DNA of 64,000 bases from an uncultured Clostridia bacterium (GTDB taxonomy: Bacteria; Bacillota; Clostridia; TANB77; CAG-508), in the NCBI GenBank assembly GCA_934155625.1, contig CAKPHD010000001.1:932-64931 (forward strand). Direction: 5' to 3'. Within the stretch, counting starts at the first letter, position 1, and every line of letters begins with the position of its first letter. A program made the position numbers and the translations under genes. Below, piece by piece: positions 41,059-57,129 of this stretch. A model generated the notes under the pieces. It was given only the letters and a program-made list of their open reading frames with translations, was not told the origin of the DNA and searched no databases.

Positions 41059-41514
41059 TTATCTTTTTATCTTTGATATATCAATTATATTTTGCATTTT
41101 TCCTACATTTGGATCTCCTAATTTTTTAGATATTGTAAGATCAAATTGTGTTAATATATCAAGTAGTTCATTATGGTCATTTTTTCTATCTTTTTCGTAT
41201 TTTTCCCAGCACTTTTCGTTTCGTTCCCAACGTTTGTCATTTTCCTCCCAACGTTTGTCGTTCTCCTCCCAACGTTTGTCATTTTCCTCCCAACGTTTGT
41301 TGTTCTCCTCCCAACGCTTGGTATTCTCTGCCCATAGTCTTTTGTTTTCCTCCCAATGAGCATTCTCAATTTCTCTACTCTTTTGTATTTCTCTCTTATT
41401 TTCTTTTATCTCAGCTCTTAACTCATTAAAAGAAGCTGTTGTTTGTAATTGAAATGTATTTAATGCTTGTCCTAGTTGTAATACTTGTTCTAGTATTTGA
41501 TCATTGTCAACCAT
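41059..41514 (-). CDS. Hypothetical coiled-coil protein with 7 tandem 8-aa repeats (N/D)xKRWEEN encoded by 24-bp DNA repeats
   Basis: AAGGAGG RBS 8 nt before the ATG at 41514. Repeat DNA at about 41212-41360. Confidence 0.6.
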   Translation of the reverse strand: MVDNDQILEQVLQLGQALNTFQLQTTASFNELRAEIKENKREIQKSREIENAHWEENKRLWAENTKRWEENNKRWEENDKRWEENDKRWEENDKRWERNEKCWEKYEKDRKNDHNELLDILTQFDLTISKKLGDPNVGKMQNIIDISKIKR

Positions 41515-41726
41515 ATTATTAACCTCCTTAAAATTTTGATTCAATCTAAAAATAGATTTAATTATTATGATGTAAAACCTCATATTGAAAAAACAATAAA
41601 TATTTGAATATAAAATAAAAATATCATAAAAAATCTGTCTACATTATACATTCTCATTTAGCTATTGTCAAGAAAATTTTTTCGACAAATTTTGACTTTT
41701 TTATACAGATAAAAAACTTTCCAAAA

Positions 41727-44113: not shown

Positions 44114-44812
44114 TTACTTATTTTTTCGTATTATTGAACTTGTTATTTTTACAACAATTTCTATTGCTTTAGAAGAATCATTTTCTTCATCTTTATAAAA
44201 TTGGTAAGCATCTTTACCAAATTTTGTATCTAATATATCTTTAGCTAGATTTTCGTCATCATTTCCTGTTCCTTGATATTTCCAGCTTACATTAAATTTA
44301 ACAGTAGCTAAAGCATCTGGAGTTGTTGTATCATCTACATATTCCCCATCAATTCTTGTTTTATCGTATGTATAACTAACATTAAATGGATAAACAGTAT
44401 CATCTGCAAACAAATTAACTGTGTTACCATTAGTTTGGATTCCTCCGTCTTCTTTTAACTGATCTAACACTTCTTTTCCAAATACTTTAACAGAAGTTAT
44501 TTCACACTCAATTTTTGAACTTGTTGTGCTTAAATTACGTATGTGTACTGTATCTTCTCTATTTGGCATTCCTGGGTATAATTCATCAATTGTAAAAGTG
44601 TAATCTTCATCTAAAACTTCTTTATCCTCAACATAATATGTAACATCCCACGGTGTTATATCAGCTTCTAAGCCATTTAATTTTACTGCTTCGTTTATAT
44701 TAAACCATGCATAGGTATTTACTATTAATATTACAGAAAATATCATTACTAATCTAACCCTAGACGCAACACTTCGCTTTTTCGCTCGTCTGAATTCACG
44801 TAATATATTCAT
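44114..44812 (-). CDS. TasA/camelysin-like secreted protein with SipW-cognate signal (NTYAWFN)
   Basis: FNVSWKYQGTGND C-terminal motif. Paralogue of the N-terminal domain of 30287..31927. Confidence 0.65.
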   Translation of the reverse strand: MNILREFRRAKKRSVASRVRLVMIFSVILIVNTYAWFNINEAVKLNGLEADITPWDVTYYVEDKEVLDEDYTFTIDELYPGMPNREDTVHIRNLSTTSSKIECEITSVKVFGKEVLDQLKEDGGIQTNGNTVNLFADDTVYPFNVSYTYDKTRIDGEYVDDTTTPDALATVKFNVSWKYQGTGNDDENLAKDILDTKFGKDAYQFYKDEENDSSKAIEIVVKITSSIIRKNK

Positions 44813-44846: not shown

Positions 44847-45569
44847 TTATTCTTCCTCTGTATCATCATCGTCTTCTATTTCTTCGTCTTCTTCGTATTC
44901 GTATTCGTCATCATCATCTTCTTCATCATCATTATCTTCATCTTCGGCTTCAATCTCATCTTCGTCCTCATCATAATCTATATACTTACTAGCTTCATTC
45001 AATTTTTGAATTTTCTTCTTTTTTCTTGGACTTCTAAATGCAATAAACACATTTAAAGATAATACAATAATGATAACAAATACAGAATATATATTAGTTG
45101 CTAATTTATATAAAATAGTTAAAATATCTGATTGATACTTTACAACACCATATATTTGGTCTGCCTTAATTTGAGGATCTTCTACACTACTGCTATGCAA
45201 ACCTTTGGCATGAAAATTCAAATTTCCATTTGCATCAGTATCAATTCCAACAACACTATGCATGATTATCTTTCCATTATAATCACCATATTTTCCAAGA
45301 TATACTATATCATCTCCAACTTTTATTTTTTTAGGATCAGTCTCTTTACTAATAACAACTTCTCCAACATCATATTCCGGCTCCATACTTCCTGTAATTA
45401 CCCTGAACATCCTATATCCGGCAATTGATTTATTATTAGCTGTAACTTTTTGCATTATTATTACTGCAGCAACTATCAAGCACAATATAACAAGTATTTG
45501 ATATAATATCTTGAGTATTATTTTTATTATTCCTTTTTTATTACTCTTTGGCTTAATATTCCCCCACAT
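44847..45569 (-). CDS. sipW: Signal peptidase I, SipW/S26B type, with a 45-aa poly-acidic C-terminal tail
   Basis: ITGSMEP Ser motif. MHSVVGI His region. C-terminal TM, then a D/E-rich tail. Confidence 0.75.
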   Translation of the reverse strand: MWGNIKPKSNKKGIIKIILKILYQILVILCLIVAAVIIMQKVTANNKSIAGYRMFRVITGSMEPEYDVGEVVISKETDPKKIKVGDDIVYLGKYGDYNGKIIMHSVVGIDTDANGNLNFHAKGLHSSSVEDPQIKADQIYGVVKYQSDILTILYKLATNIYSVFVIIIVLSLNVFIAFRSPRKKKKIQKLNEASKYIDYDEDEDEIEAEDEDNDDEEDDDDEYEYEEDEEIEDDDDTEEE

Positions 45570-45584
45570 AATCTTTTCCCTCTT

Positions 45585-46193
45585 CTACACATTGTAATTA
45601 TCTCTCAGTTTCTTTAGCTCATATTTTTTTCTTTTTATTTTTCTAGTATTTTTCTGTTTATCTTTTAGACTAACTAATACATATAAAATTATTACAAAAA
45701 TCAATATATTTATAAATCCTCTTAAATTCTGTATATAATGCACTACTTTTCCGAGTTTTGGAATTGTAAATAAGACTTTTCCATAGACATTTTTAAATTC
45801 TACAGGATCTTTATCTTGTACATCATTATTATCTCCTTTTGTAATAAATTTCAAATTTTCATTTTCTTTAGTAATTTCAAATATTCTATGAGAAATTACT
45901 CTATCACCTTGTTTAAAAGTTATAATTTCGCCCTTTTTCAATTCGTCTAATTTACTTTTTTGAACAATTGCTAAATCATCTTTATAAAATGTTGGCTCCA
46001 TACTTTCTGAAACTATATTAAACATATAAATTCCTAAAACATGAGTATCTTCTTCAAAAGATAATATTAGATTAATTATAAAAAGTATTATTAAACTAAC
46101 CAGTATTATACACTTAAAAACTTTTTTTGTCATCTTTTTATTTTTTATTTTATTAGAAATTTTATCTACATCATATTCCAATTTTGCTCTCAC
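45585..46193 (-). CDS. Signal peptidase I, SipW/S26B type (second copy)
   Basis: VSESMEP, VISHRIF, C-terminal TM. Confidence 0.7.
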   Translation of the reverse strand: MRAKLEYDVDKISNKIKNKKMTKKVFKCIILVSLIILFIINLILSFEEDTHVLGIYMFNIVSESMEPTFYKDDLAIVQKSKLDELKKGEIITFKQGDRVISHRIFEITKENENLKFITKGDNNDVQDKDPVEFKNVYGKVLFTIPKLGKVVHYIQNLRGFINILIFVIILYVLVSLKDKQKNTRKIKRKKYELKKLRDNYNV

Positions 46194-46214
46194 CTTATAC
46201 TATTTTCTTTTGCA

Positions 46215-47834
46215 TTATTTTTTTAGCATCTCTTTTACAGATGTAATATATTCTAAATCTTCTATAGAAAATTTGCTTTTTTGAATATTGTTGTAATTAT
46301 TAACAATTTTAACCTTTTTTATCAAATCTTCTATATTATCCTCTTGAAAATTCTCTTTTGAAACTTGCATTCCAAACAATTTATATTTGTCTTTTATTAT
46401 AACTGCCAATTCTTTGGTATCACTTATTTTTATATAATTGATTACTGTAAAATCAGAAAAATTAATAAAATCTCTAATTTTCTTAGCAGTTTCTCCAATT
46501 TCTTTATCTGTAATTTCTTCATTCTTTTTAATCATAGCTTTTGCCATAAACCAATAATGATTACTTGCTAGTTTTAATACATCTAATAAAGAGGATGTAT
46601 CATCTATATTTTTAACAATTCTTTGTCTTAAAATTTCATCATCTAATTGCATATATGCTTTTTTCAACTCTAAAATTAAATTATTTCTTTGTAATATAGT
46701 TGCAGTATCTTTCTTTATATTTGAATTTTTTCTACCAAATAATCCTTTTTTAGGTTTGTTAATTTTTGCATTTAATTTAAATATATCAGATTTCAATTTT
46801 TTAATATTTTCTTTAGTTAAATCATAATCTGTTTTTTTCACTTTTTTACTTTTATTTTCTTCAATCTTTTTAAGTTCTTCTTCTTTTATTTGCAATATTT
46901 CTTCAACTAGAAATCTATATTCAGAATATGTTGAATATTCATCTAAATTATCATTTAATTTTCTAATATTTTCGTCCATTTCTGCCTTTTCAGATTCTGA
47001 TAAATCAGAAATGTTTTTAGAAATTAATTCAAAATACATTTTCTGATAATTATCGCCTTTATAATCATTTATATTAAAAGCACCTGTATAAAATTTATCA
47101 AGAATGATTTTATTATCTGTAGCTTCAATAGAATTTTTCTTTTTAATTAATTCAGATTTCTTTTCTTCAACTCCCTCTGAAGTTGACTTAAATTCTTTTA
47201 ATATTTCCTCTGATTTACTTTCATAAAATTTATCAATTTCGCTTTCATATTTATCATAAATATATCTGATATTTGCATATAAATGAGCAACTACATCTGA
47301 ACATTCCCAATATACTTTTTCAAATGTGTTTTTTATTAACTCTGAATTTATGTTTCCATTTTGTGCTTCTTGTAATAAAATAACCATATATTTTTTTGAA
47401 TATTCACTTATATTAAAATCCTCTTCTGATAATCTAATTCCCACAGCCTCAAACTTTTTAACACATTCTATTAATTCAGTATTTAATCTTTCCAAATTAC
47501 TTTTATAATATCCATTTACATTGTAGATTATTTTATCAAGTCCCATTTTCTCAAATGAAGAACGAGTATCTGTATTTTTTACAGCAACATCATATTTTAA
47601 AATTTCTGTCTCTATTTGAGGAATTTCTTTGTTTTCTTCAACTGCAGTAAGTTCGTCATATCTAGTTTCAATTTCTTTTAATAAAGCTGTATTTGCTGCT
47701 TCATATTTATCTGTCATATCTTTTATAGTTTCTAATAAAGATTTTATTGCTTTTATTCCATTCCTTGGTAGAACTGAAATAACTTCTTTATCTGTTGCTA
47801 TTTGTTTTTCTACATTTTCTACTAATTCTTTCAT
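46215..47834 (-). CDS. Hypothetical cytoplasmic coiled-coil protein (539 aa)
   Basis: No TM segment or signal peptide. K/E-rich heptads. Confidence 0.5.
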   Translation of the reverse strand: MKELVENVEKQIATDKEVISVLPRNGIKAIKSLLETIKDMTDKYEAANTALLKEIETRYDELTAVEENKEIPQIETEILKYDVAVKNTDTRSSFEKMGLDKIIYNVNGYYKSNLERLNTELIECVKKFEAVGIRLSEEDFNISEYSKKYMVILLQEAQNGNINSELIKNTFEKVYWECSDVVAHLYANIRYIYDKYESEIDKFYESKSEEILKEFKSTSEGVEEKKSELIKKKNSIEATDNKIILDKFYTGAFNINDYKGDNYQKMYFELISKNISDLSESEKAEMDENIRKLNDNLDEYSTYSEYRFLVEEILQIKEEELKKIEENKSKKVKKTDYDLTKENIKKLKSDIFKLNAKINKPKKGLFGRKNSNIKKDTATILQRNNLILELKKAYMQLDDEILRQRIVKNIDDTSSLLDVLKLASNHYWFMAKAMIKKNEEITDKEIGETAKKIRDFINFSDFTVINYIKISDTKELAVIIKDKYKLFGMQVSKENFQEDNIEDLIKKVKIVNNYNNIQKSKFSIEDLEYITSVKEMLKK

Positions 47835-47968
47835 GAATTTTCCTCCTCTAATTTTTTGACAGTATCATATTCAGTATTTAAAAATTTTAGAAAACTTTCT
47901 ATTTGTTTTTGTACATCAAGTAATTCTTTATTTTCTAATTTTGATGTTTTAATATTTTTTATTTCCAA
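47831..47968 (-). CDS. Possible small ORF (45 aa, TTG or GTG start) translationally coupled (ATGA) to 46215..47834
   Basis: GAGGGGTGAG RBS. Its stop overlaps the downstream start. Confidence 0.3.
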   Translation of the reverse strand: MEIKNIKTSKLENKELLDVQKQIESFLKFLNTEYDTVKKLEEENS

Positions 47969-47985
47969 AAAACTCACCCCTCATT

Positions 47986-48624
47986 TTATTGATTTATATA
48001 TTGTTTAAAGTTTAAAGTTGCCCTGTAATTTAAAAGTGTATGCAACTCTTTTTCGTCTGTACTAGCTTCACCTTTGAACTCTGTATCAGCCTTATTGTTC
48101 ATAGTGCTACCTTCACCATCATTCCATCTAAATAGAACTTTTACTTCACGCTTTTTTTCACCTGAACTATTTAGTTCTGTTGTTGGATCTATTACTCCTT
48201 TAATTTCTTTAGTTTCTGTTACTGTAGATTTATCGCCATCCACAATTTCATATCCATATACCTCAAAATCTGCCAATTTAGTATTATTTAATTGTTCTAT
48301 AGAAAAGTCATATTCAAATGCTAAATCTACATATGTATAATCAATTACTAAGTCAAAATATCCAGTTCTGCCTGGAACTAAAGTATTGTTGTTGTTCATA
48401 TTTTCATCTTCAACAATAACTGGTTGAACAACTTCACTAAGTGTTGATTCCTCATGTATTACATGGTCATTTACTTTAATTAACCATCTTTTAATATGTG
48501 TATCATAAGTTGTATCAACTTTTTCAAAATATCTCGCATATGTTCTTTGTATTGATATAAATGTAATCAATAATGAGATAATACATAAAACTTGTAAAAT
48601 TCTCAACTTATTCTTTTTCTTCAT
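47986..48624 (-). CDS. TasA/camelysin-like secreted protein (212 aa), paralogue of 54112..54753
   Basis: Signal peptide followed by TYARYF. VLFRWNDGEGS resembles TasA FEATQWNG. Confidence 0.65.
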   Translation of the reverse strand: MKKKNKLRILQVLCIISLLITFISIQRTYARYFEKVDTTYDTHIKRWLIKVNDHVIHEESTLSEVVQPVIVEDENMNNNNTLVPGRTGYFDLVIDYTYVDLAFEYDFSIEQLNNTKLADFEVYGYEIVDGDKSTVTETKEIKGVIDPTTELNSSGEKKREVKVLFRWNDGEGSTMNNKADTEFKGEASTDEKELHTLLNYRATLNFKQYINQ

Positions 48625-49198
48625 TCATATGTCTCCCTTTAAATATTCTAAATCCTAGGTATATAGTTAATGGCAATATTCCACAAAAGTAAAATACATA
48701 TTTATTATTTAGTAGCATACAAATTAAAGATAAAATATATAATTTGGTTTGAACTACACCATTAATTTGACCTCCATATACAACAGGGTCTTCCAAATTA
48801 TTCGCAATACCTTTTGTATGGAATGCTTTTTGACCATCTATTTCTTCAATATCAATGACTCTGTGGGTTATAAGTAAACCTTTTACAGAACTAGCCTCAC
48901 CATGATATGTTACATCATCTCCAACTTTTATTTGGTTAATATCTTTTTCTTTTACTAAGATAACATCTCCAACATTATATTTGGGAATCATACTTCCTGT
49001 TTGAACTCTGAATATTCTATATCCAAAAAATGATTCTTTATTATTTGTTACTTTTTGTACAACTATTATTATACAAATCAAAATTATTATAATTGTTATT
49101 ATTCTTGATATAATACTTTTAATTATGTGTAATGAACGATTTTTTTTTAACGTACTTTTTGCTTCTTTTTGCTCGTTTTCTTCTCTTTTGTTTTCCAT
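48608..49198 (-). CDS. Signal peptidase I, SipW/S26B type (third copy)
   Basis: QTGSMIP, ITHRVIDI. Confidence 0.7.
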   Translation of the reverse strand: MENKREENEQKEAKSTLKKNRSLHIIKSIISRIITIIIILICIIIVVQKVTNNKESFFGYRIFRVQTGSMIPKYNVGDVILVKEKDINQIKVGDDVTYHGEASSVKGLLITHRVIDIEEIDGQKAFHTKGIANNLEDPVVYGGQINGVVQTKLYILSLICMLLNNKYVFYFCGILPLTIYLGFRIFKGRHMNEEKE

Positions 49199-49200
49199 TT

Positions 49201-50325
49201 TTATTTTAACCTCACTTCTTTTGCCTGTAACATATATTTATCAATTCTATCTTTAAATCTATCTTCTATTGGTTTTAAAGATATTAATTTTCTAGTTTTC
49301 ATAACTATAAGCTTATCTGCTATCATCTGTTTTAAATCTTTATCAGATAAATCTGGATTAAGCTCAATTATTTTTTCTATTAAATTATCTGTTAATTCTT
49401 TCCTTGCTTTATTATCTTCTACCGCACTTTTTCTTTGTCCTTTTAACTTTTCTGCAACATTATTATTCTTAAATATTAAGTGCATTAAATAGATATTTTC
49501 ATCAACTAGTTTTTTTGCAATTCCTTTTTCTTCATATTCTTTATTTGCTTTTACAGCTTTATCTTTAATTTCCATCTGGTCACTTAAATAATTCCACAAT
49601 TTAAGTGCATATTGAAAATGTACGTTTTTAAGTAATACATTTGTCATTTTTATTGGAGATTTTACAAGTGTAACCCTTTTTGAATCGAGTAATTGATATA
49701 CTGGAGTTGTTTTTAAATCTTTTAATTTCTTTTTAATATCTTGAATTCTTTGTGCTGTTCCTACTGATTTTCTAACACTTGTAGGCATCTCTGCATCATA
49801 ATTAAAATTAACTTTAATTTTTTCTTTTTTATATTTTATTTCAGCCTGATAATTAGCTTTTTGTTGATTTTTTCCTTTATAATCTGTTTGTTGACCTTTT
49901 TCACGTAAATACATATAGTCTTCTATTAATTTTATAAGACTGTATAAAAAACGGTTCTCATATGTAATAAAAGTTTCTTCTTTATACGCATTTAATATTT
50001 TTTTAGGTATTACCTCACCTGTTTGTTGGTTAAATCTATCAACATAGTTTACATTTTTAGATAAATTTTTTACACTTTCTACTGTTACTTTTTTAATTAA
50101 CTCAATTTTTATTATTTCTTCTTCTGTAATAATGTTTTTTATCTCTTTTGTTAGAGCTTTCTCTATATGAGGAAGTGAAAACTCAACCATCTCTATCCAT
50201 TCATCATTCTCTACTATTTGATTTTTATTAACATCCACCATTAACTTTGAATCAACTTTATTAAGAAATTCCTGTGATGATTGTCCAGTTTCCATATTCG
50301 CAAGTTTTATTACATCTAAGTCCAT
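49201..50325 (-). CDS. Hypothetical protein (374 aa) immediately downstream of the AAA_5 ATPase. Putative partner subunit.
   Basis: No TM segment. K/E-rich. Gene order resembles ATPase-plus-partner pairs. Confidence 0.45.
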   Translation of the reverse strand: MDLDVIKLANMETGQSSQEFLNKVDSKLMVDVNKNQIVENDEWIEMVEFSLPHIEKALTKEIKNIITEEEIIKIELIKKVTVESVKNLSKNVNYVDRFNQQTGEVIPKKILNAYKEETFITYENRFLYSLIKLIEDYMYLREKGQQTDYKGKNQQKANYQAEIKYKKEKIKVNFNYDAEMPTSVRKSVGTAQRIQDIKKKLKDLKTTPVYQLLDSKRVTLVKSPIKMTNVLLKNVHFQYALKLWNYLSDQMEIKDKAVKANKEYEEKGIAKKLVDENIYLMHLIFKNNNVAEKLKGQRKSAVEDNKARKELTDNLIEKIIELNPDLSDKDLKQMIADKLIVMKTRKLISLKPIEDRFKDRIDKYMLQAKEVRLK

Positions 50326-50354
50326 TTTTTATATCCTTTCTACAAGCTTTTATT

Positions 50355-51908
50355 TTATGACATTTTTTTCAATCTTAATAAAAATTCTATACATTCTGCC
50401 ATTTTGCCTTTTCCAAAGTTTTTATCCAAGAAGTCTATGTATCCATCAATTTCATCTCTAATTAAAGCTAAGTTTAATCCTTCAAATTTTCTTAAAACTT
50501 TTTTAGCCATGAAATAATCTACAGCTTCTGTTTCGTCTCCACCACAAGCTACATAAACAGGTACGAATTTTCTCATATGTTTTACAATACGGTTACCAAA
50601 AGCAACTCTGAAGTGCTTAATTGTATAGTTATCCATGTCATCAATTTTCTTTAAAGTAGCTGGTGAAATTGCATAATCTACCATAGCTTTTTCGAATAAT
50701 CCATTTAAGTATGAATAATTTACATCAAGTGCATCAACATCATCTGGCTCAAATGCAATACCCTTTTCGTTGATATCTATAGGCATAGCTCTATCGTATA
50801 CCTTATCTGTTACCATGAATGTAGAGTCGTCGTTGTTGATTGTTCCGATATACCAAGCATTTGGTGGAATTTGTAATTTTCCTCTTATTAATTTTTTGGG
50901 GTCTGTTGGCCATGAGCTTTGTACAACTTCAATCTTCCAATCCTTTGTGCTGTGCATTTCTAGGATTGATAACATTTCTGCAAAATAGTACTCAACACGC
51001 GCTAAGTTCATCTCGTCTAGGATTACTGTAAATATTTCATCCGTATATCCAGCTTCATATAAATATGCTAAGAAGTCTGTCTCGTTAAACTTTTTAGTGA
51101 ATTCGTTTAAGTACCCAAATATATCTGTTCTATCTCTCCAAGAGGGCTGTACTGAAGCTACACAAGATGGGTGTTTTACAAAGTTACCCCAAGCAAGTGA
51201 TATAGAGGTCTTACCTGTACCAGAGATACCCTGTAGGATAACTAGCTTTGTTGAAGCTATAGCTGATACGAATAATCTTATCATCTTTTCACTATAATAC
51301 AATTTTAATTTACTTGCAGCAAAATTTCTGAATTTATAACAAAATTCTGGTAAAGTAAATGAATTGTGATAATCTTTTTGCTTATATTTTGCATATTCTT
51401 GATCTATTAATGTTAATTTAGAGAATCTGCTTTGGCTATTAGGGTCAATTTGTTCTTCATTATTTTCTTGTGATTGAGCAGCAGCATATGCAGCTCTATC
51501 AGCACCTGTACTTATTCCATTTGGATTAACACCTAATTCTGGAGTCTTCATAGATAATAATTTTAATTTTTCATCTACAAGCTCTTCCACTTGATCATTT
51601 AAAGTATCAATTTGTTTTAATAATTCTTCTTGGTCAATAATTTTCTTTCTCCATTTCATATGTTTCTTTAAGAAAAATACAATTATTCCAACTATACTTC
51701 CAATAACTACAAGCATACAAATAATAGCCAATCCTGTCAAAAACCATTCTGACATCTTAAAATCATTTGCATAATTTTGAATTATCAAATAATATTCTGG
51801 TACATTAAATATATTTAAAATACCTTTCCATAGTCCTCCAAATATCTCTCCAAAACCTGAAAAGAATTGGTGTAAAAACTCAAATAAAAATCTTCCGTAT
51901 GTTTCCAT
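50355..51908 (-). CDS. Membrane-anchored AAA_5 (MoxR/McrB-like) ATPase: N-terminal TM helices, coiled coil, Walker A GISGTGKTS, Walker B/sensor ILDEMNLA
   Basis: Motifs read directly. DEMNLA...YFAEM matches the McrB/MoxR DEINRA...FGEL pattern. Confidence 0.65.
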   Translation of the reverse strand: METYGRFLFEFLHQFFSGFGEIFGGLWKGILNIFNVPEYYLIIQNYANDFKMSEWFLTGLAIICMLVVIGSIVGIIVFFLKKHMKWRKKIIDQEELLKQIDTLNDQVEELVDEKLKLLSMKTPELGVNPNGISTGADRAAYAAAQSQENNEEQIDPNSQSRFSKLTLIDQEYAKYKQKDYHNSFTLPEFCYKFRNFAASKLKLYYSEKMIRLFVSAIASTKLVILQGISGTGKTSISLAWGNFVKHPSCVASVQPSWRDRTDIFGYLNEFTKKFNETDFLAYLYEAGYTDEIFTVILDEMNLARVEYYFAEMLSILEMHSTKDWKIEVVQSSWPTDPKKLIRGKLQIPPNAWYIGTINNDDSTFMVTDKVYDRAMPIDINEKGIAFEPDDVDALDVNYSYLNGLFEKAMVDYAISPATLKKIDDMDNYTIKHFRVAFGNRIVKHMRKFVPVYVACGGDETEAVDYFMAKKVLRKFEGLNLALIRDEIDGYIDFLDKNFGKGKMAECIEFLLRLKKMS

Positions 51909-51911
51909 ATT

Positions 51912-52952
51912 TTATTTCATCCTTTCGACAATTACATCATCACGTTTGATTTCTTTGTACAATTTTAAATCATTTGGTACAATAACTAATTTAAACATCC
52001 TTAATTTTTCTACATCATCTGCACTCTTTAAAGTGTCATCTAATGTAATTACAAAATTATAACCTTTTTTTATGTATTCAAGCACACTTTTTTGATTTTT
52101 TATATAATCTGCATATGTAATATTTAAAATAATTTTTTCTTGTAAAGCTTGATTTCCAATTAAAGATAAAATTCCATTTAATTTCTGTTTCTTTTTAAAT
52201 AAAGAACTTTCAAATTCAGCTATATAAGTATCTTTAAAATTCCCATTAATAATATCTCTAATTGCAACTGTACTTAATAATATATATTCAATTTGCAATT
52301 TATCTTCTGCAATTATTCCTTCAGTAAAAACCTTTTCTATTGCAGAATCACTGTATTGCATTGGCATTTTTATATTATGATTTAAATAAACATAATACAT
52401 TTCTTCGTTAAACTCGGTATTTTCAAACTCTAATGAAAATTCATCTGTATCAAATTTATCTAAATACACATCTTTTTCAATCATATCATTTTTTACTTCT
52501 TTATAAAGCTGTTCTTCTATGTCTTTTGGCTTTTTTACTTCATAATATGATTCTATTAATTCTAAGATTTTTTTGATAATTTCATGTAAACTATCAATTG
52601 TCTTAAAATTTTCAATATTTCTTACATTGTCAAAAAATAACACATATCCAAAAACTTCTTTAATAATGTGAATTAAATTCAATTTAGCTTGCTTTTCATC
52701 TAAAGTCTCAGACTCTTCTTCACATTTTTCCATTAAAATATCTTCTTTATATTCTAATTCATCTAATATTCTCAAATAAAACGCCCTAGCTGGCTTGTCT
52801 GTATTTCTTATATTATAATATCTAGCATTTATATATGTTTTTAAATATTCATTAACTAATTCTTCATTATAATTTGTGTTAAATATAATTTTCATATATT
52901 TTTTTATTTTTTTCTCTGTAAAATTCAAATATGTATCCATTAAATTGTTCAT
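51912..52952 (-). CDS. Hypothetical cytoplasmic protein (346 aa), first gene of the AAA_5 trio
   Basis: ORF 4 nt from the ATPase gene. Confidence 0.45.
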   Translation of the reverse strand: MNNLMDTYLNFTEKKIKKYMKIIFNTNYNEELVNEYLKTYINARYYNIRNTDKPARAFYLRILDELEYKEDILMEKCEEESETLDEKQAKLNLIHIIKEVFGYVLFFDNVRNIENFKTIDSLHEIIKKILELIESYYEVKKPKDIEEQLYKEVKNDMIEKDVYLDKFDTDEFSLEFENTEFNEEMYYVYLNHNIKMPMQYSDSAIEKVFTEGIIAEDKLQIEYILLSTVAIRDIINGNFKDTYIAEFESSLFKKKQKLNGILSLIGNQALQEKIILNITYADYIKNQKSVLEYIKKGYNFVITLDDTLKSADDVEKLRMFKLVIVPNDLKLYKEIKRDDVIVERMK

Positions 52953-52968
52953 TTTCTGCCCCTTTCGA

Positions 52969-53036
52969 TGGGACCGCTGGGACCGGTTCTTTGCGGTACC
53001 TTTTTGGTACTTTGGGGACCGGTTCTTTGCGGTACC
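52969..53036. repeat. Two units of the dispersed repeat
   Basis: gggaccggttctttgcggtacc, twice. Confidence 0.8.
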
Positions 53037-53620
53037 TATTCTACAATTTGTTTTGCATTTATGTCTAATTTTATATATTCCATTATATCTGCATATTCTT
53101 CATATAAATAATTTTCTTTTGGAAATTTTACTTTTATAACAAAGCTATCAGTTTCATCTACTCCTTGTTTCATTTGGTTCTCATCTAATGATATCTTTTT
53201 ATAATATGTTCCATCATCATCTGTAATTATTTCTTGTTGAGCATTTAAAATTTGGCCATTTTTTACAATTTGATATTCTAATGGTAAATTAGTTGTCATT
53301 GTAAGTGTAATTCCATATTCTAAATCAGTTTCTGCTCTTTTACTAATATTTCCATCTTCTTCTTTTTTAAAATTTGATACAGAAAATGTATAATCAAATG
53401 AATTATCTGATGGATATACATCTTTTATTACAATTTTTCCTGTTTTAAAGTCATCATTTACTATCCAAAACGCAACATCTAGGTCTTTATCTGATGTTGC
53501 TGTTGTTTCATATTTAGCTAATGTTCTTCTTATAAGAATTATTGCTATTATTATTATCGCTATTAATAAAAGTACTAAAAGACTTTTTTTAACTTTCTTT
53601 TTATCAAACATTTTCATCAC
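53036..53620 (-). CDS. TasA/camelysin-like secreted protein (194 aa)
   Basis: Signal peptide followed by TLAKYET. Confidence 0.6.
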   Translation of the reverse strand: MMKMFDKKKVKKSLLVLLLIAIIIIAIILIRRTLAKYETTATSDKDLDVAFWIVNDDFKTGKIVIKDVYPSDNSFDYTFSVSNFKKEEDGNISKRAETDLEYGITLTMTTNLPLEYQIVKNGQILNAQQEIITDDDGTYYKKISLDENQMKQGVDETDSFVIKVKFPKENYLYEEYADIMEYIKLDINAKQIVE

Positions 53621-54128
53621 CTGTTTTCTCTTTGTATGAAACCAGTAATATAAATAAAATAACTGTTATACTAATTGGTATTATTACATGTACATCTGAA
53701 AATACTTTTTTCCATATTTCAACATTATTCACAATAAAAACGGTTCTACCAATAACTTCATCTTTTTTTATAGGCTCATCATATGTATTATTAAAGTCAC
53801 CTTTTGCGATTATGGTATCTCCATTTATATTTACTATTCTATGTGTAACTAACACATTTTCTTTTTGGTATGTTATAATATCATTTTCCTTTATTTCATC
53901 ACCTATTTTGATTATTACAATATCACCTTTTTCGATTGTTGGTGACATACTTCCAGTTTCTGTGCTAAGTACTGAATAGCCGAATATATCAATATATTGC
54001 TTGTGTTGTACATTTAATTGAATAAATCCCCAAATAGCAATAATGGCAATGATTCCTAATATAAATATTATTAAATTTACTATAATTTTTTTTATAACTT
54101 CAAATACTTTATTATGCTTCATTGCCAA
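53604..54128 (-). CDS. Signal peptidase I, SipW/S26B type (fourth copy)
   Basis: ETGSMSP, VTHRIVNI, C-terminal TM. Confidence 0.7.
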   Translation of the reverse strand: MAMKHNKVFEVIKKIIVNLIIFILGIIAIIAIWGFIQLNVQHKQYIDIFGYSVLSTETGSMSPTIEKGDIVIIKIGDEIKENDIITYQKENVLVTHRIVNINGDTIIAKGDFNNTYDEPIKKDEVIGRTVFIVNNVEIWKKVFSDVHVIIPISITVILFILLVSYKEKTGDENV

Positions 54129-54753
54129 TCCTTTCTCCTGTATATTGCTTAAAGTTTATCTCTAGAGGTATAGATATTTTTGCATTTTCAGTTTGTCCCA
54201 ATTCTGAATCTGTTGCATTATTTTCTTCAACATTTGCCCACTCAAAATATAATCTGACATAATTTAGATATTTGTCATTTATTTTTGATATTGGAATTAC
54301 TGCTTGATGTTGGTGTTCAGCCAATACAGTATTAATTTCTGTATTAGTAATTTGCTCTGTTCCTCCATCTTTTTTGAAATAATTTTCTACTTTAACTAAA
54401 TTCATTTTTGCAGTTTTGACATCATCTAATTTTAGATTAAGTGTATATAGAATAGACACATCTGTATTTGTTGGATCTATTAGTATATCAAAATATGCTT
54501 GTGTTCCAGGTGCTACTTTTTGACTTTTTACACGGGCAGAATCAATGTATGTTAAATTGTCTTCTGTCATTGTAAAAGTTGCATTTTCTCCACCATTAGA
54601 TATATCTACTCCATTTACTTTTATAGCCCATACACCTAATAAATTGGTATAATCTCCTTGTAGTTGGTCTTTGTATAATGCATACATATTTGCTATTTGG
54701 AACAAAGATATAATTAACATTATTAATACTAAAACTGTTAATAATTTCTTCAT
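54112..54753 (-). CDS. TasA/camelysin-like secreted protein (213 aa), paralogue of 47986..48624
   Basis: WAIKVNG, YFDILID, LYFEWANVEEN, INFKQY. Confidence 0.65.
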   Translation of the reverse strand: MKKLLTVLVLIMLIISLFQIANMYALYKDQLQGDYTNLLGVWAIKVNGVDISNGGENATFTMTEDNLTYIDSARVKSQKVAPGTQAYFDILIDPTNTDVSILYTLNLKLDDVKTAKMNLVKVENYFKKDGGTEQITNTEINTVLAEHQHQAVIPISKINDKYLNYVRLYFEWANVEENNATDSELGQTENAKISIPLEINFKQYTGERIGNEA

Positions 54754-55581
54754 TTATTTTTCCTCTTTTGCAGATTTTGTTGTTTTGGTTGTTTTTGTTG
54801 TAGCCTTTTTAGGCTTTGCTGTAGTTGCTGATTTTGTAGTTGTTGTCTTTTTTGCAGTTGTCTTTTTTGCTGATGTTTTTGAAGTTGTACTTGCTTTTTT
54901 TGTAGTTGCTGTTTTTGATGTAGGAGCTTTCTTTGTTGTAGTTTTCTTTGCTGGAGCTTTTTTTACAACTTTTACTTCTTGAACCTCTTCTTCATCTTCT
55001 GTTTCTTCGTCTTCAGAATCATCTTCATATTCTACTTCTACAGCTTCTTTTTCACGTTTCTTTTTCTTATCTCCAAGATATTTAATTTCCATTACTAAAT
55101 CAAATACTTCTTGTAAGAATAGTAATAAAGAAACAATTACTACGCAGAACAAGTATCCCCATTTAGATTCTAATAAGTTTAAAATATATCCCCATCCTTC
55201 TATAACTACTGTATCACTTGTTTTTCCTATAAAATAGTCATTTGCATAACTTTCTTCATTTTCAACAGCATAAATTATATGGCTTCCTTGTTGTGTTTTT
55301 TCTTGTAAAGTTCTACTTACAACTTCATATTGTTGGCTATTAATTACTTTATATAGTAATATTTCATCTCCACTTTTAACATTTCTGTCATTTGTTTTTT
55401 TGATTAATAATATAGATCCTTGTTTATATTCAGGTTCTAATGAATCATCTTTTACTATATAAACAGTATATCCTCCTAATTCACTATTATTATAGTCATT
55501 ATATGACAATAACAATACTGTAACTGTAATTGCAATTATGGCATATAACACAAATAATATACTACCTAATGCTTTTTTCAT
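54754..55581 (-). CDS. SipW-like S26B paralogue lacking the catalytic His (VVSRT in place of VTHRV), with acidic and K/T-rich C-terminal tails. Probable pseudo-peptidase.
   Basis: DDSLEP Ser box present, His box substituted, C-terminal low-complexity KKTT repeats. Confidence 0.55.
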   Translation of the reverse strand: MKKALGSILFVLYAIIAITVTVLLLSYNDYNNSELGGYTVYIVKDDSLEPEYKQGSILLIKKTNDRNVKSGDEILLYKVINSQQYEVVSRTLQEKTQQGSHIIYAVENEESYANDYFIGKTSDTVVIEGWGYILNLLESKWGYLFCVVIVSLLLFLQEVFDLVMEIKYLGDKKKKREKEAVEVEYEDDSEDEETEDEEEVQEVKVVKKAPAKKTTTKKAPTSKTATTKKASTTSKTSAKKTTAKKTTTTKSATTAKPKKATTKTTKTTKSAKEEK

Positions 55582-56261: not shown

Positions 56262-57129
56262 TTATTTGTTTGTCACATTAACAACCGCATTCGCATCTCC
56301 GGAAGGATAAGTATAATCTTTGGACATATCAACTTTATAAAATTTAATATACTGTGTAGACTCTTTATTCATATTAAAAGTATATTTTTTTACATACCCT
56401 TTCGAATCTGTTACTTCACTTCCTGCAACCCTGTTCACATAAGAATCATCTGCTAAATCAACTCTTACTACATCAGAATCAAACTCTATAGTTACAGGAT
56501 TTCCACTATCTTGTGCATTTACAACTTTTAGCACAGCATAATTTCTATTTGCAACATCATCTATAGTATAAGTATTAACAGTCTCCTGTTGCACCCTTAA
56601 AACAACCTCACAAGAAATCTCTTTTTGATAAGGAACCTTAGTGCTAGCCTTAATCTTTACTCTAATAGTCTGATTTTTCTCAATTGGGCTTTTTGGAGTA
56701 ACCATTACCATAACTTTACTAAGATTATTTACAACATCTCCTATTTTAGCATATATAACTCCAGTTGTAGAAGTAAGTCCATCAGCTGCATTAATACCGT
56801 AGAGTTACTTTATCAGCATCAGGAGTTTCGCAAGAAACTGAATAATCCAAATCATACTCCATTCTGCTTAAAGTATTAGCATAACTATATAAATCAAAGC
56901 TTATATTATATGTATCAACACCTCCCCAATCCTCATATTGATATGTTGGATTGTTAAGTGTCAATAAATTACTGGTAAAATAAAACTTTCTTGAAGTAAA
57001 ATAAGCTTCTCTTATTCCATTATAAACATATCTTCCAAAAACTGATAATGTCACTATTATAATTAAAATAAATATTACTATAGCAATTTTAAATTTATTT
57101 AATTTTCTATGTCTTTTTGTTTTATTCAT
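56262..57129 (-). pseudogene. TasA/camelysin-like gene split by an apparent frameshift at about 56790 (ORFs 56791..57129 and 56262..56711). The N-terminal part carries a signal peptide and REAYF motif.
   Basis: The downstream frame is open right up to the upstream stop. There is no RBS or start for the second part. Confidence 0.5.

Follow-up and report, generated by a model that had tools for sequence, protein, structure and literature searches.

The DNA analyzed here, hereafter called the window, is a stretch of 64,000 nucleotides from an uncultured Clostridia bacterium (contig CAKPHD010000001.1). All genes between 41.8 and 63.9 kb of the window lie on the minus strand, in a cluster that includes five open reading frames (ORFs) for proteins similar to the signal peptidase SipW. 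These SipW-like proteins, numbered c1 to c5, are interleaved with small secreted proteins abbreviated as t232, t212, t194, t213 and t425. Our analysis shows that c5 is a conserved, catalytically disabled homologue of SipW/Sec11 signal peptidases, fixed beside t213 and an active paralogue. An earlier reading of the DNA sequence, hereafter the original prediction, had described five SipW paralogues, whose ORFs we find at the stated coordinates, all on the minus strand, and had proposed that c5 is a likely pseudo-peptidase, as the alignments presented below bear out. The features on which this conclusion depends are the following.

54754..55581, minus strand: c5 (copy 5), 275 amino acids, catalytically dead SipW/Sec11-type signal-peptidase homologue
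55441..55443, minus strand: codon of c5 Ser47, within the Ser box DDSLEP, matched in alignments to the catalytic Ser in both SEC11A and c4
55315..55317, minus strand: codon of c5 Ser89, at the catalytic-His position, aligning with His96 of SEC11A and His96 of c4
55279..55281, minus strand: codon of c5 His101, a clade-conserved, non-catalytic His in QQGxH
54112..54753, minus strand: t213, fiber-subunit-like secreted protein with SipW-type signal peptide MYA↓LY (the arrow marks the putative cleavage site); its start abuts the c5 stop
53604..54128, minus strand: c4 (copy 4), 174 amino acids, predicted active SipW with Ser60, His96, GD and distal Asp

As previously proposed, c5 retains the Ser box DDSLEP but has VVSRT, with Ser89, at the His box. 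Three independent alignments put Ser89 on the catalytic His: a MAFFT alignment of the five copies, a phmmer comparison with human SEC11A, in which EVVSRTLQEKTQQGSHIIYAVENEESYANDYF pairs without gaps (EVVSRT to ANDY) and each catalytic position can thus be assigned in c5, and a profile-profile alignment by hhalign of 38 members of the c5 family with 41 active c4/c2 orthologues (probability 98.8%, E 6e-17). A MAFFT alignment of 134 sequences slips by one residue and brings Arg90 into the His column, and in none of these four alignments does a His occupy the catalytic position of c5. The original prediction had also given VTHRV as the His box of the other four copies; the His is indeed kept in all of them, but the boxes differ, reading IMHSV in c1, ISHRI in c2, ITHRV in c3 and VTHRI in c4.

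A conserved His elsewhere in c5, if in register with the catalytic His of SipW, would have overturned the original prediction. The candidate for it is His101, the single conserved His of c5, which lies 12 residues downstream of the catalytic position. This residue pairs with His108 of SEC11A, which is non-catalytic and replaced by Asp in SEC11C, and in the hhalign comparison it lies within a hairpin that is inserted with respect to the active SipWs. The AlphaFold2 (AF2) model of c5 locates it just past the turn joining strands 85-98 and 101-106, at the tip of a beta-hairpin and, by these strand assignments, separated from position 89 by about nine residues of the hairpin. His101 is common to the closest relatives of c5 (in the QQGxH motif) and unconserved in the wider family. 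Because it is not in register with the catalytic His, the pseudo-peptidase reading of c5 survives. As to the distal Asp of the triad, phmmer pairs Asp115 of c5 with Asp122 of SEC11A, hhalign deletes the segment, and the family shows no conservation in this column.

Profile searches separate c5 from its paralogues. With the TIGR02228 model of archaeal/endoplasmic reticulum (ER)-type signal peptidase I (MEROPS S26B), c5 scores 37.1, under the cutoff of 51.85 that is passed by c1 (64), c2 (108.7), c3 (84.8) and c4 (63.8), and with NF046067 it scores 54.6 versus a cutoff of 190. Its match to the bacterial-type model TIGR02227 is much weaker (E 0.012) than those to the SipW and archaeal-type models. 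Human SEC11A and SEC11C of the ER signal peptidase complex (PDB 7p2p and 7p2q) are the best PDB matches of c5 in both sequence and fold, and the only ones in sequence (c2 matches SEC11C with an E-value of 2.7e-14). The AF2 model, which has a predicted local distance difference test score (pLDDT) of 90.8, retrieves with Foldseek SEC11C, SEC11A and SipA of Streptococcus pyogenes as the top three structures. SEC11 is an active enzyme with accessory subunits that are not homologous to it, whereas c5 is itself a dead paralogue. From the K/R-flanked hydropathy profile and the AF2 helices (residues 2-25 and 140-184), c5 is predicted to have its N-terminus inside, then a beta-domain outside the cytoplasm, another membrane helix and finally a tail in the cytoplasm.

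The loss of the triad is a property of a whole family. A word-indexed search with c5 returned 608 homologues, the best 120 of which are all at least 77% identical to it, whereas an HMMER scan of 1.84 billion cluster representatives returned 926 matches at E<=1e-3 and 168 at E<=1e-10; the 129 full-length representatives among the best 150 of the latter scan constitute our diverse set. Among the best 120 homologues the position of the catalytic His is occupied by S, D, E, N, T, V or R, and in the diverse set it is mostly G (59), A (30) or S (16), amounting to 81% G/A/S. Most of these diverse representatives have lost the Ser as well, their Ser column showing a gap, E, N, S, D or A among others, and only two of the 129 (P0240 and P0244) have the canonical Ser/His pair. 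The distal Asp is similarly unconserved. No Lys replaces the catalytic His, hence the family has no Ser-Lys dyad of the bacterial P-type. What the family does conserve best is the beta-domain together with membrane-proximal motifs, namely LLSYN(D/E)Y just outside the first transmembrane helix (TM1) and LESKWGFLF...EIKY around the second (TM2). No model covering this family was found in NCBIfam or Pfam, and no description of an inactive peptidase of the SipW type was found in the papers searched.

These substitution patterns bear on the idea that c5 is still a protease, in which Ser47 would work with an unconventional general base or acid such as Asp45/Asp46 or Glu109. The DDSLEP box is invariant in 120 of the 120 close homologues and acidic residues flank the Ser position throughout the family, as this idea would have it. 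We nevertheless consider it very improbable, given that the His position varies freely (S/D/E/N/T/V/R) within the very clade that keeps the Ser, that a homologue with 70% identity to c5 (P0122) has Ala in place of Ser47, that D/E/N or a gap is found at this position in most of the family, and that His101 is as remote along the modeled hairpin as described above.

The other SipW proteins of the cluster present the opposite situation. Besides c4, they are encoded as follows.

48608..49198, minus strand: c3 (copy 3), 196 amino acids, predicted active SipW with Ser69, His112, KGI and distal Asp
45585..46193, minus strand: c2 (copy 2), 202 amino acids, predicted active SipW with Ser64, His102, GDNN and distal Asp, and a basic tail of 25 amino acids
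44847..45569, minus strand: c1 (copy 1), 240 amino acids, predicted active SipW with Ser61, His104 and Asp131, and an acidic tail

A census of the four catalytic positions (Ser, His, first Asp and distal Asp) in genomic orthologues found all of them (SHDD) in 28 of 30 c2-like and 68 of 69 c4-like proteins; c1-like proteins have S, H, one of L/I/T, and D in 16/16 cases, c3-like proteins have S, H, a variable residue and D in 56/56, and the His is present in 0/82 c5-like members. Altogether, Ser/His/Asp are kept in 168 of the 171 orthologues of c1 to c4, and the motif GSMxP is found in 120/120 of the closest c1 homologues. Both Asp residues are retained in c2 and c4, whereas in c1 and c3, and in every one of their orthologues, the GDN box is without its first Asp (KGL and KGI, respectively) while the Ser, the His and the distal Asp are present. 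The c1/c3 and c2/c4 pairs would then represent, from these residues, two sub-types of presumably active SipW within one cluster.

Loss of catalytic residues could also befall a functionless relic of a duplicated sipW gene, a possibility to which we give next to no credence for c5. The c5-like gene is an intact ORF in 82 loci, where it has a fixed position and orientation at identities down to 30%, and it has conserved motifs of its own. Measured against 21 close orthologues, the median ratio of nonsynonymous to synonymous substitution rates (dN/dS) is 0.17 for the c5 domain, 0.22 for c4, 0.23 for t213 and 0.31 for t194, and the identity of c5 to its orthologues is similar to that of the neighboring genes in close and distant genomes alike. 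This low ratio, together with identities that track those of the neighbors, indicates that c5 is a maintained protein kept under purifying selection. A decaying pseudogene was considered and rejected on the same grounds of intact ORFs, purifying selection and neighbor-like identity.

The genomic neighborhood of c5 was then compared in a scan of one genome per species, with a query built from eight closer c5 sequences, which yielded 80 loci at 30-86% identity. All 80 come from metagenome-assembled genomes (MAGs) of uncultured, low-GC Bacillota from the gut of humans, chickens, rabbits and sheep, among them 'Clostridium sp. CAG:780', 'Ca. Scatovivens' and the closed 1.55-Mb chromosome OV788638. 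The core order that is conserved reads c5-like, t213-like, c4-like, t194-like, (g112/g149), g346, g517, g374, c3/c1-like, t232-like, g261 and t425, and its first four genes follow one another in this way in 80 species-level genomes, at identities as low as 30%. The cluster of many distant loci begins with the c5 homologue. (One MAG, CAKPGU01, which accounts for loci L039, L017 and L027, has at least two copies of the cluster, with the close-clade and the distant type side by side on contig CAKPGU010000009.) The further members of this neighborhood in the window are listed below.

53036..53620, minus strand: t194, second subunit-like protein, with TLA↓KY; overlaps the end of c4
44114..44812, minus strand: t232, subunit-like protein downstream of c1, whose N-region is strongly basic and which has TYA↓WF
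51912..52952, minus strand: g346, cytoplasmic protein, fused to the tail of a c4-type SipW in five genomes
49201..51908, minus strand: g517 and g374, membrane-anchored AAA+ ATPase and DUF2357 protein, conserved core of the cluster

In 73 of 78 loci a t213-like gene comes immediately after that of the c5 homologue, the median gap being 0 nucleotides, and in the window the TAA stop of c5 directly adjoins the ATG start of t213. The c5 gene is thus, to judge from this arrangement, apparently coupled in translation to the t213 gene. The t213-c4 and c4-t194 junctions also abut or overlap across loci. Such packing, in a string of overlapping genes where the c5-like and c4-like genes always lie two genes apart, may be taken to favor a role of c5 as the non-catalytic partner of c4, i.e., a dead/live heteromer in which c5 would tune the activity or specificity of c4 and would not hold t213. 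Pairing of a pseudoenzyme with an active paralogue is a common theme. Yet the gene that is directly coupled to c5 is that of t213 and not that of c4, and we consider the heteromer unlikely, even if it is the foremost alternative.

The small secreted proteins are recognizable by their N-termini, which show x-Y/L-A↓x-Y/F after a hydrophobic helix, for example NMYA↓LY, RTLA↓KY, RTYA↓RY and NTYA↓WF. Every subunit-like group keeps the motif x-[YFL]-[AS]-x-[YF] across loci. It agrees with the cleavage site TWA↓AF of Bacillus subtilis TasA. The AF2 model of t213, built from database homologues with a shallower alignment (pLDDT 74.8), comprises an N-terminal helix and then a beta-sandwich, for which Foldseek finds weak matches (TM 0.3-0.4) to the archaeal cannula protein CanA, the TasA fiber, pilins and adhesins of Gram-positive bacteria, and FimG.

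The explanation that we find best, and to which we would give about an even chance, is that c5 functions as a non-cleaving receptor or anchor for signal peptides, by analogy with SipA of S. pyogenes. The dead domain of c5 would still bind t213 through its signal peptide and cleavage region, on the outer side of the membrane, would be unable to cut it, and would then become a chaperone, placeholder or membrane anchor for t213, while the active paralogues would process the subunits that polymerize. SipA is presumed to work in this manner when the pilus of S. pyogenes is assembled. The original prediction had advanced a role as scaffold or substrate receptor, which is plausible in that it fits with both the invariant gene neighborhood and the precedent of SipA. 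In the latter protein the catalytic Ser and Lys give way to Asp and Gly, the peptide-binding cleft is kept, and the protein is essential for pilus polymerization and has been proposed to bind a stretch of peptide from a pilin (PMC4049620). In Clostridium perfringens it has been proposed, in a preprint, that the uncleaved signal peptide keeps BsaA oligomers anchored to the membrane until SipW cuts it (PMC11580942); with a dead SipW, a single dedicated subunit would stay anchored in this way permanently.

The likeness of c5 to SipA (also called LepA, of the FCT pilus islands; PDB 4n31) has several aspects. Both proteins have the signal-peptidase fold without the catalytic residues, SipA being the third-best structural match of the c5 model, and the Asp/Gly of SipA resembles what is seen in many members of the c5 family, with D/E/N in the Ser column and G/A in the His column. 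Both are also encoded within a surface-fiber cluster beside subunit genes, the fiber nature of t213 being weakly supported. However, SipA stems from the bacterial P-type (Ser-Lys) lineage and c5 from the ER/archaeal-type (Ser-His-Asp) lineage of SipW/Sec11. Given these separate descents, the c5 family lost its triad independently of SipA. Moreover, SipA works with sortase-linked pilins, whereas no match to sortase families was found among the proteins of the c5 cluster that were scanned, and a second membrane helix as well as a cytoplasmic tail set c5 apart from SipA.

In these last features c5 is equivalent to the SipW proteins of B. subtilis (tapA-sipW-tasA) and C. perfringens (sipW-bsaA-bsaB-bsaC), which belong to the same family and have the same two-helix topology with cytoplasmic C-terminus. 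They are dedicated peptidases encoded beside their fiber-subunit substrates, which have a signal peptide of the T-x-A↓x-F type. These SipWs are active (Ser47/His87/Asp106), whereas c5 lacks the His and falls under the family cutoffs. The cluster of the window differs from theirs in having five paralogues, four of them predicted to be active, and tails far longer than the 20-residue tail of SipW.

Several observations weigh against the receptor or anchor role proposed here for c5. The Foldseek TM-scores of the c5 model are modest (0.34-0.52), and Ser47 with its whole box is invariant in the window's own clade, so residual or altered chemistry may take place at this residue. As to the proposed ligand, t213 has no sequence match to TasA, Pfam or PDB; the label of 'TasA-like fiber subunit', which draws on the weak fold matches of the model and on the signal-peptide motif, is reasonable but weakly supported. 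Moreover, t213 keeps the cleavable-looking motif MYA↓LY and may simply be cut by c4. Its signal peptide, which in a retained anchor should be unusually conserved, is only modestly more conserved than the mature part in the close clade (88% vs 71%), and this indecisive excess becomes indistinct in distant loci. Finally, the long tail of c5 rich in Lys and Thr (K/T) is confined to one clade within a family of short median tail length, and is thus not essential to the core function of the family.

The tails themselves, which the original prediction had singled out, comprise the following segments.

44850..44978, minus strand: acidic run of the c1 tail, 43 amino acids with 35 D/E
54976..55053, minus strand: acidic block of the c5 tail, amino acids 177-202, present in 110/120 close homologues
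54757..54975, minus strand: K/T/S/A-rich block of the c5 tail, 73 residues, ending in a conserved [SA]KEE[EK]

The nearly pure Asp/Glu composition that had been noted in c1 holds for its last 43 residues (DYDEDEDE...TEEE), a richness of binomial p 5e-23 versus the composition of the cluster's own proteins, and the succession of an acidic stretch and a Lys/Thr-rich part in c5 was likewise found as described, with 24 K and 24 T in the 73 residues of the latter (p 1e-19). Each of the five paralogues shows two hydrophobic helices, flanked by K/R-rich stretches N-terminally and just past TM2, from which the SipW tails are predicted to be cytoplasmic, as in B. subtilis SipW. The c1 and c5 tails are both encoded by imperfect tandem repeats (of the GAT/GAA type in c1, of period 15-66 in c5) and vary in length between near-identical strains, with c5 having 275, 284 or 288 amino acids and c1 238-246. 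They are low-complexity sequences in which the composition is conserved and the sequence is not. The acidic tail is present in all 120 of the closest c1 homologues, with a median of 54 amino acids and 57% D+E, and acidic tails recur on SipWs of the c1/c3 type in distant genomes (locus L066 has 45 D/E in 58 residues). Of the 120 close homologues of c5, 110 show the juxtamembrane EIKY, the acidic block and then a K/R/S/T/A-rich block, and 112 have a C-terminal [SAP]KEE[EKT]. Outside the clade of the window, tails of the c5 family are short (median 19 amino acids) or otherwise charged, with poly-K or 'KSMTEEEKRALIEAK' repeats.

One could see the c5 tail, and perhaps the whole protein, as mainly a signaling or anchoring module, whose histone-H1-like segment rich in K/T/A/P would bind DNA, anionic lipid or another polyanion. 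The predicted cytoplasmic location, the three-part architecture and C-terminal KEE[EK] seen in 110-112 of 120 close homologues, and family matches limited to low-complexity ones to RodZ and the C-terminus of ValS would be in line with such a module, as would the regulatory cytoplasmic C-terminus of B. subtilis SipW, where the last 20 residues have a separate signaling role (PMC8767453). However, most members of the family have no long tail, the tail length differs between near-identical strains, and conservation in the family is strongest in the beta-domain and in the motifs close to the membrane. On balance we hold this module to be doubtful, somewhat more so than the heteromer of c5 and c4.

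The original prediction had further suggested that the oppositely charged tails of c1 and c5 bind each other electrostatically, thereby joining the two proteins. Both tails are on the predicted cytoplasmic side and both are conserved in the window's clade, but the basic block of c5 adjoins an acidic block of its own, and the K/T-rich tail is restricted to this clade, whereas eight loci pair acidic tails of the c1/c3 type with a short-tailed c5 homologue. The association of the two tails across loci is not positive (rho -0.23, p 0.08, in a test biased by c1 being cut off in many loci), and c1 lies 9 kb away from c5 in a different sub-module, beside t232. The pairing of these tails is therefore not supported and seems to us improbable. 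A second suggestion, pairing of the acidic tail with Lys-rich N-termini of the substrates, is topologically possible, since tail and substrate N-region are both predicted to be cytoplasmic. It stands at the level of gene classes: over 192 adjacent pairs, taken from loci that are phylogenetically non-independent, the charge of the SipW tail correlates negatively with that of the N-region of the adjacent substrate (rho -0.31, p 1.5e-5). This correlation is one between classes and does not extend within the t232 class (p 0.21).

Another view of what the tails may contact is provided by five genomes in which an active SipW of the c4 type is a single ORF of 644-709 amino acids that also carries a g346-like domain. 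In these fusions the catalytic residues are intact, and a long charged linker connects TM2 to the g346-like domain.

L045:11685-13619, c4-type SipW-g346 fusion
L073:14075-16198, c4-type SipW-g346 fusion
L076:11146-13275, c4-type SipW-g346 fusion
L078:10583-12676, c4-type SipW-g346 fusion
L082:10571-12577, c4-type SipW-g346 fusion

Such a Rosetta-stone link is an argument for SipW tails extending to cytoplasmic components of their own cluster, and the tails of c1 and c5 are probably flexible tethers or docking segments toward g346, g517 and g374. Besides these three, the larger proteins encoded in the cluster are g539, g153 and a giant protein of 2218 amino acids. Nearly all cluster proteins lack a match in Pfam and NCBIfam scans. 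The protein g517 is the most conserved of the cluster (92% and 62% identity) and has an N-terminal membrane helix, a Walker A motif (GISGTGKTS) and ILDEMNLARVEYYF; its AAA+ core matches the PADLOC candidate-defense model PDC-M26A (E 2.5e-35), and a profile search of PDB sequences found no match for it. The next gene, g374, encodes DUF2357, presumably the N-terminal domain of McrC. An McrBC-like pair such as g517 and g374 is unexpected within a cluster of surface proteins. On visual inspection the C-terminal half of g346 resembles EAL (GYNFVITLDD), a resemblance that is unconfirmed: of 26 family members a single one matched the Pfam EAL model (E 0.023), and PDB gave no match.

Other features of the cluster region deserve mention. 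In the window and close relatives, g112 (56791..57129, minus strand) and g149 (56262..56711, minus strand) are two ORFs about 80 nucleotides apart, which in more distant genomes are a single ORF of about 283-316 amino acids. The N-terminus of g112/g149 carries the SipW-type motif VFGRY. A split gene, a frameshift or recoding could be the cause of this arrangement. The giant protein (57232..63888, minus strand; 2200-2850 amino acids in orthologues) contains 'xxYGG' repeats rich in Gly, Asn and Thr, has no Pfam match and, in the clade of the window, is found upstream of the SipW modules. At 41059..41583 on the minus strand, an ORF of 174 amino acids contains tandem WEEN[DN]KR repeats, which also produce long spurious ORFs on the opposite strand. 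A scan for promoters and terminators was of little information in this AT-rich DNA, giving 114 promoter-like sites versus 110 expected, and no terminator within the cluster.

With its four live SipWs and a dead one, no fewer than six substrates, a membrane AAA+ ATPase and a giant protein, the whole cluster may represent an apparatus of a new kind. In a more detailed scheme, which we offer as speculative and rather unlikely to be right in all its parts, the c5 family would be the signal-peptide-holding, non-cleaving subunit of an undescribed fiber-assembly machine in uncultured gut Bacillota. Live and dead SipWs would each serve their own TasA/CanA-like subunit, while their cytoplasmic tails would couple them to the McrB-like g517, to g374 and to g346, forming an ATP-driven complex inside the cell that would gate subunit release and donor-strand polymerization outside.

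Inactive signal-peptidase homologues that build fibers are, to our knowledge, known from only one lineage, that of P-type SipA/LepA in the sortase pili of streptococci. The c5 family represents a separate loss of catalysis, within the ER/archaeal-type SipW lineage, that has become fixed in a large and conserved family whose gene is always paired with a fiber-subunit-like gene and an active paralogue. It thus offers a second natural live/dead pair in one operon, which is usable to probe how a dead signal peptidase recognizes signal peptides and could also show whether uncleaved subunits anchor or prime fibers of the TasA type. The fusion of the SipW tail with g346 is a concrete handle on the role of SipW C-terminal tails, which has been a question since the bifunctional SipW of B. 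subtilis. More generally, the finding flags a cluster of about 25 kb that is almost wholly unannotated and widespread in small-genome, Clostridia-like gut bacteria of humans and animals.

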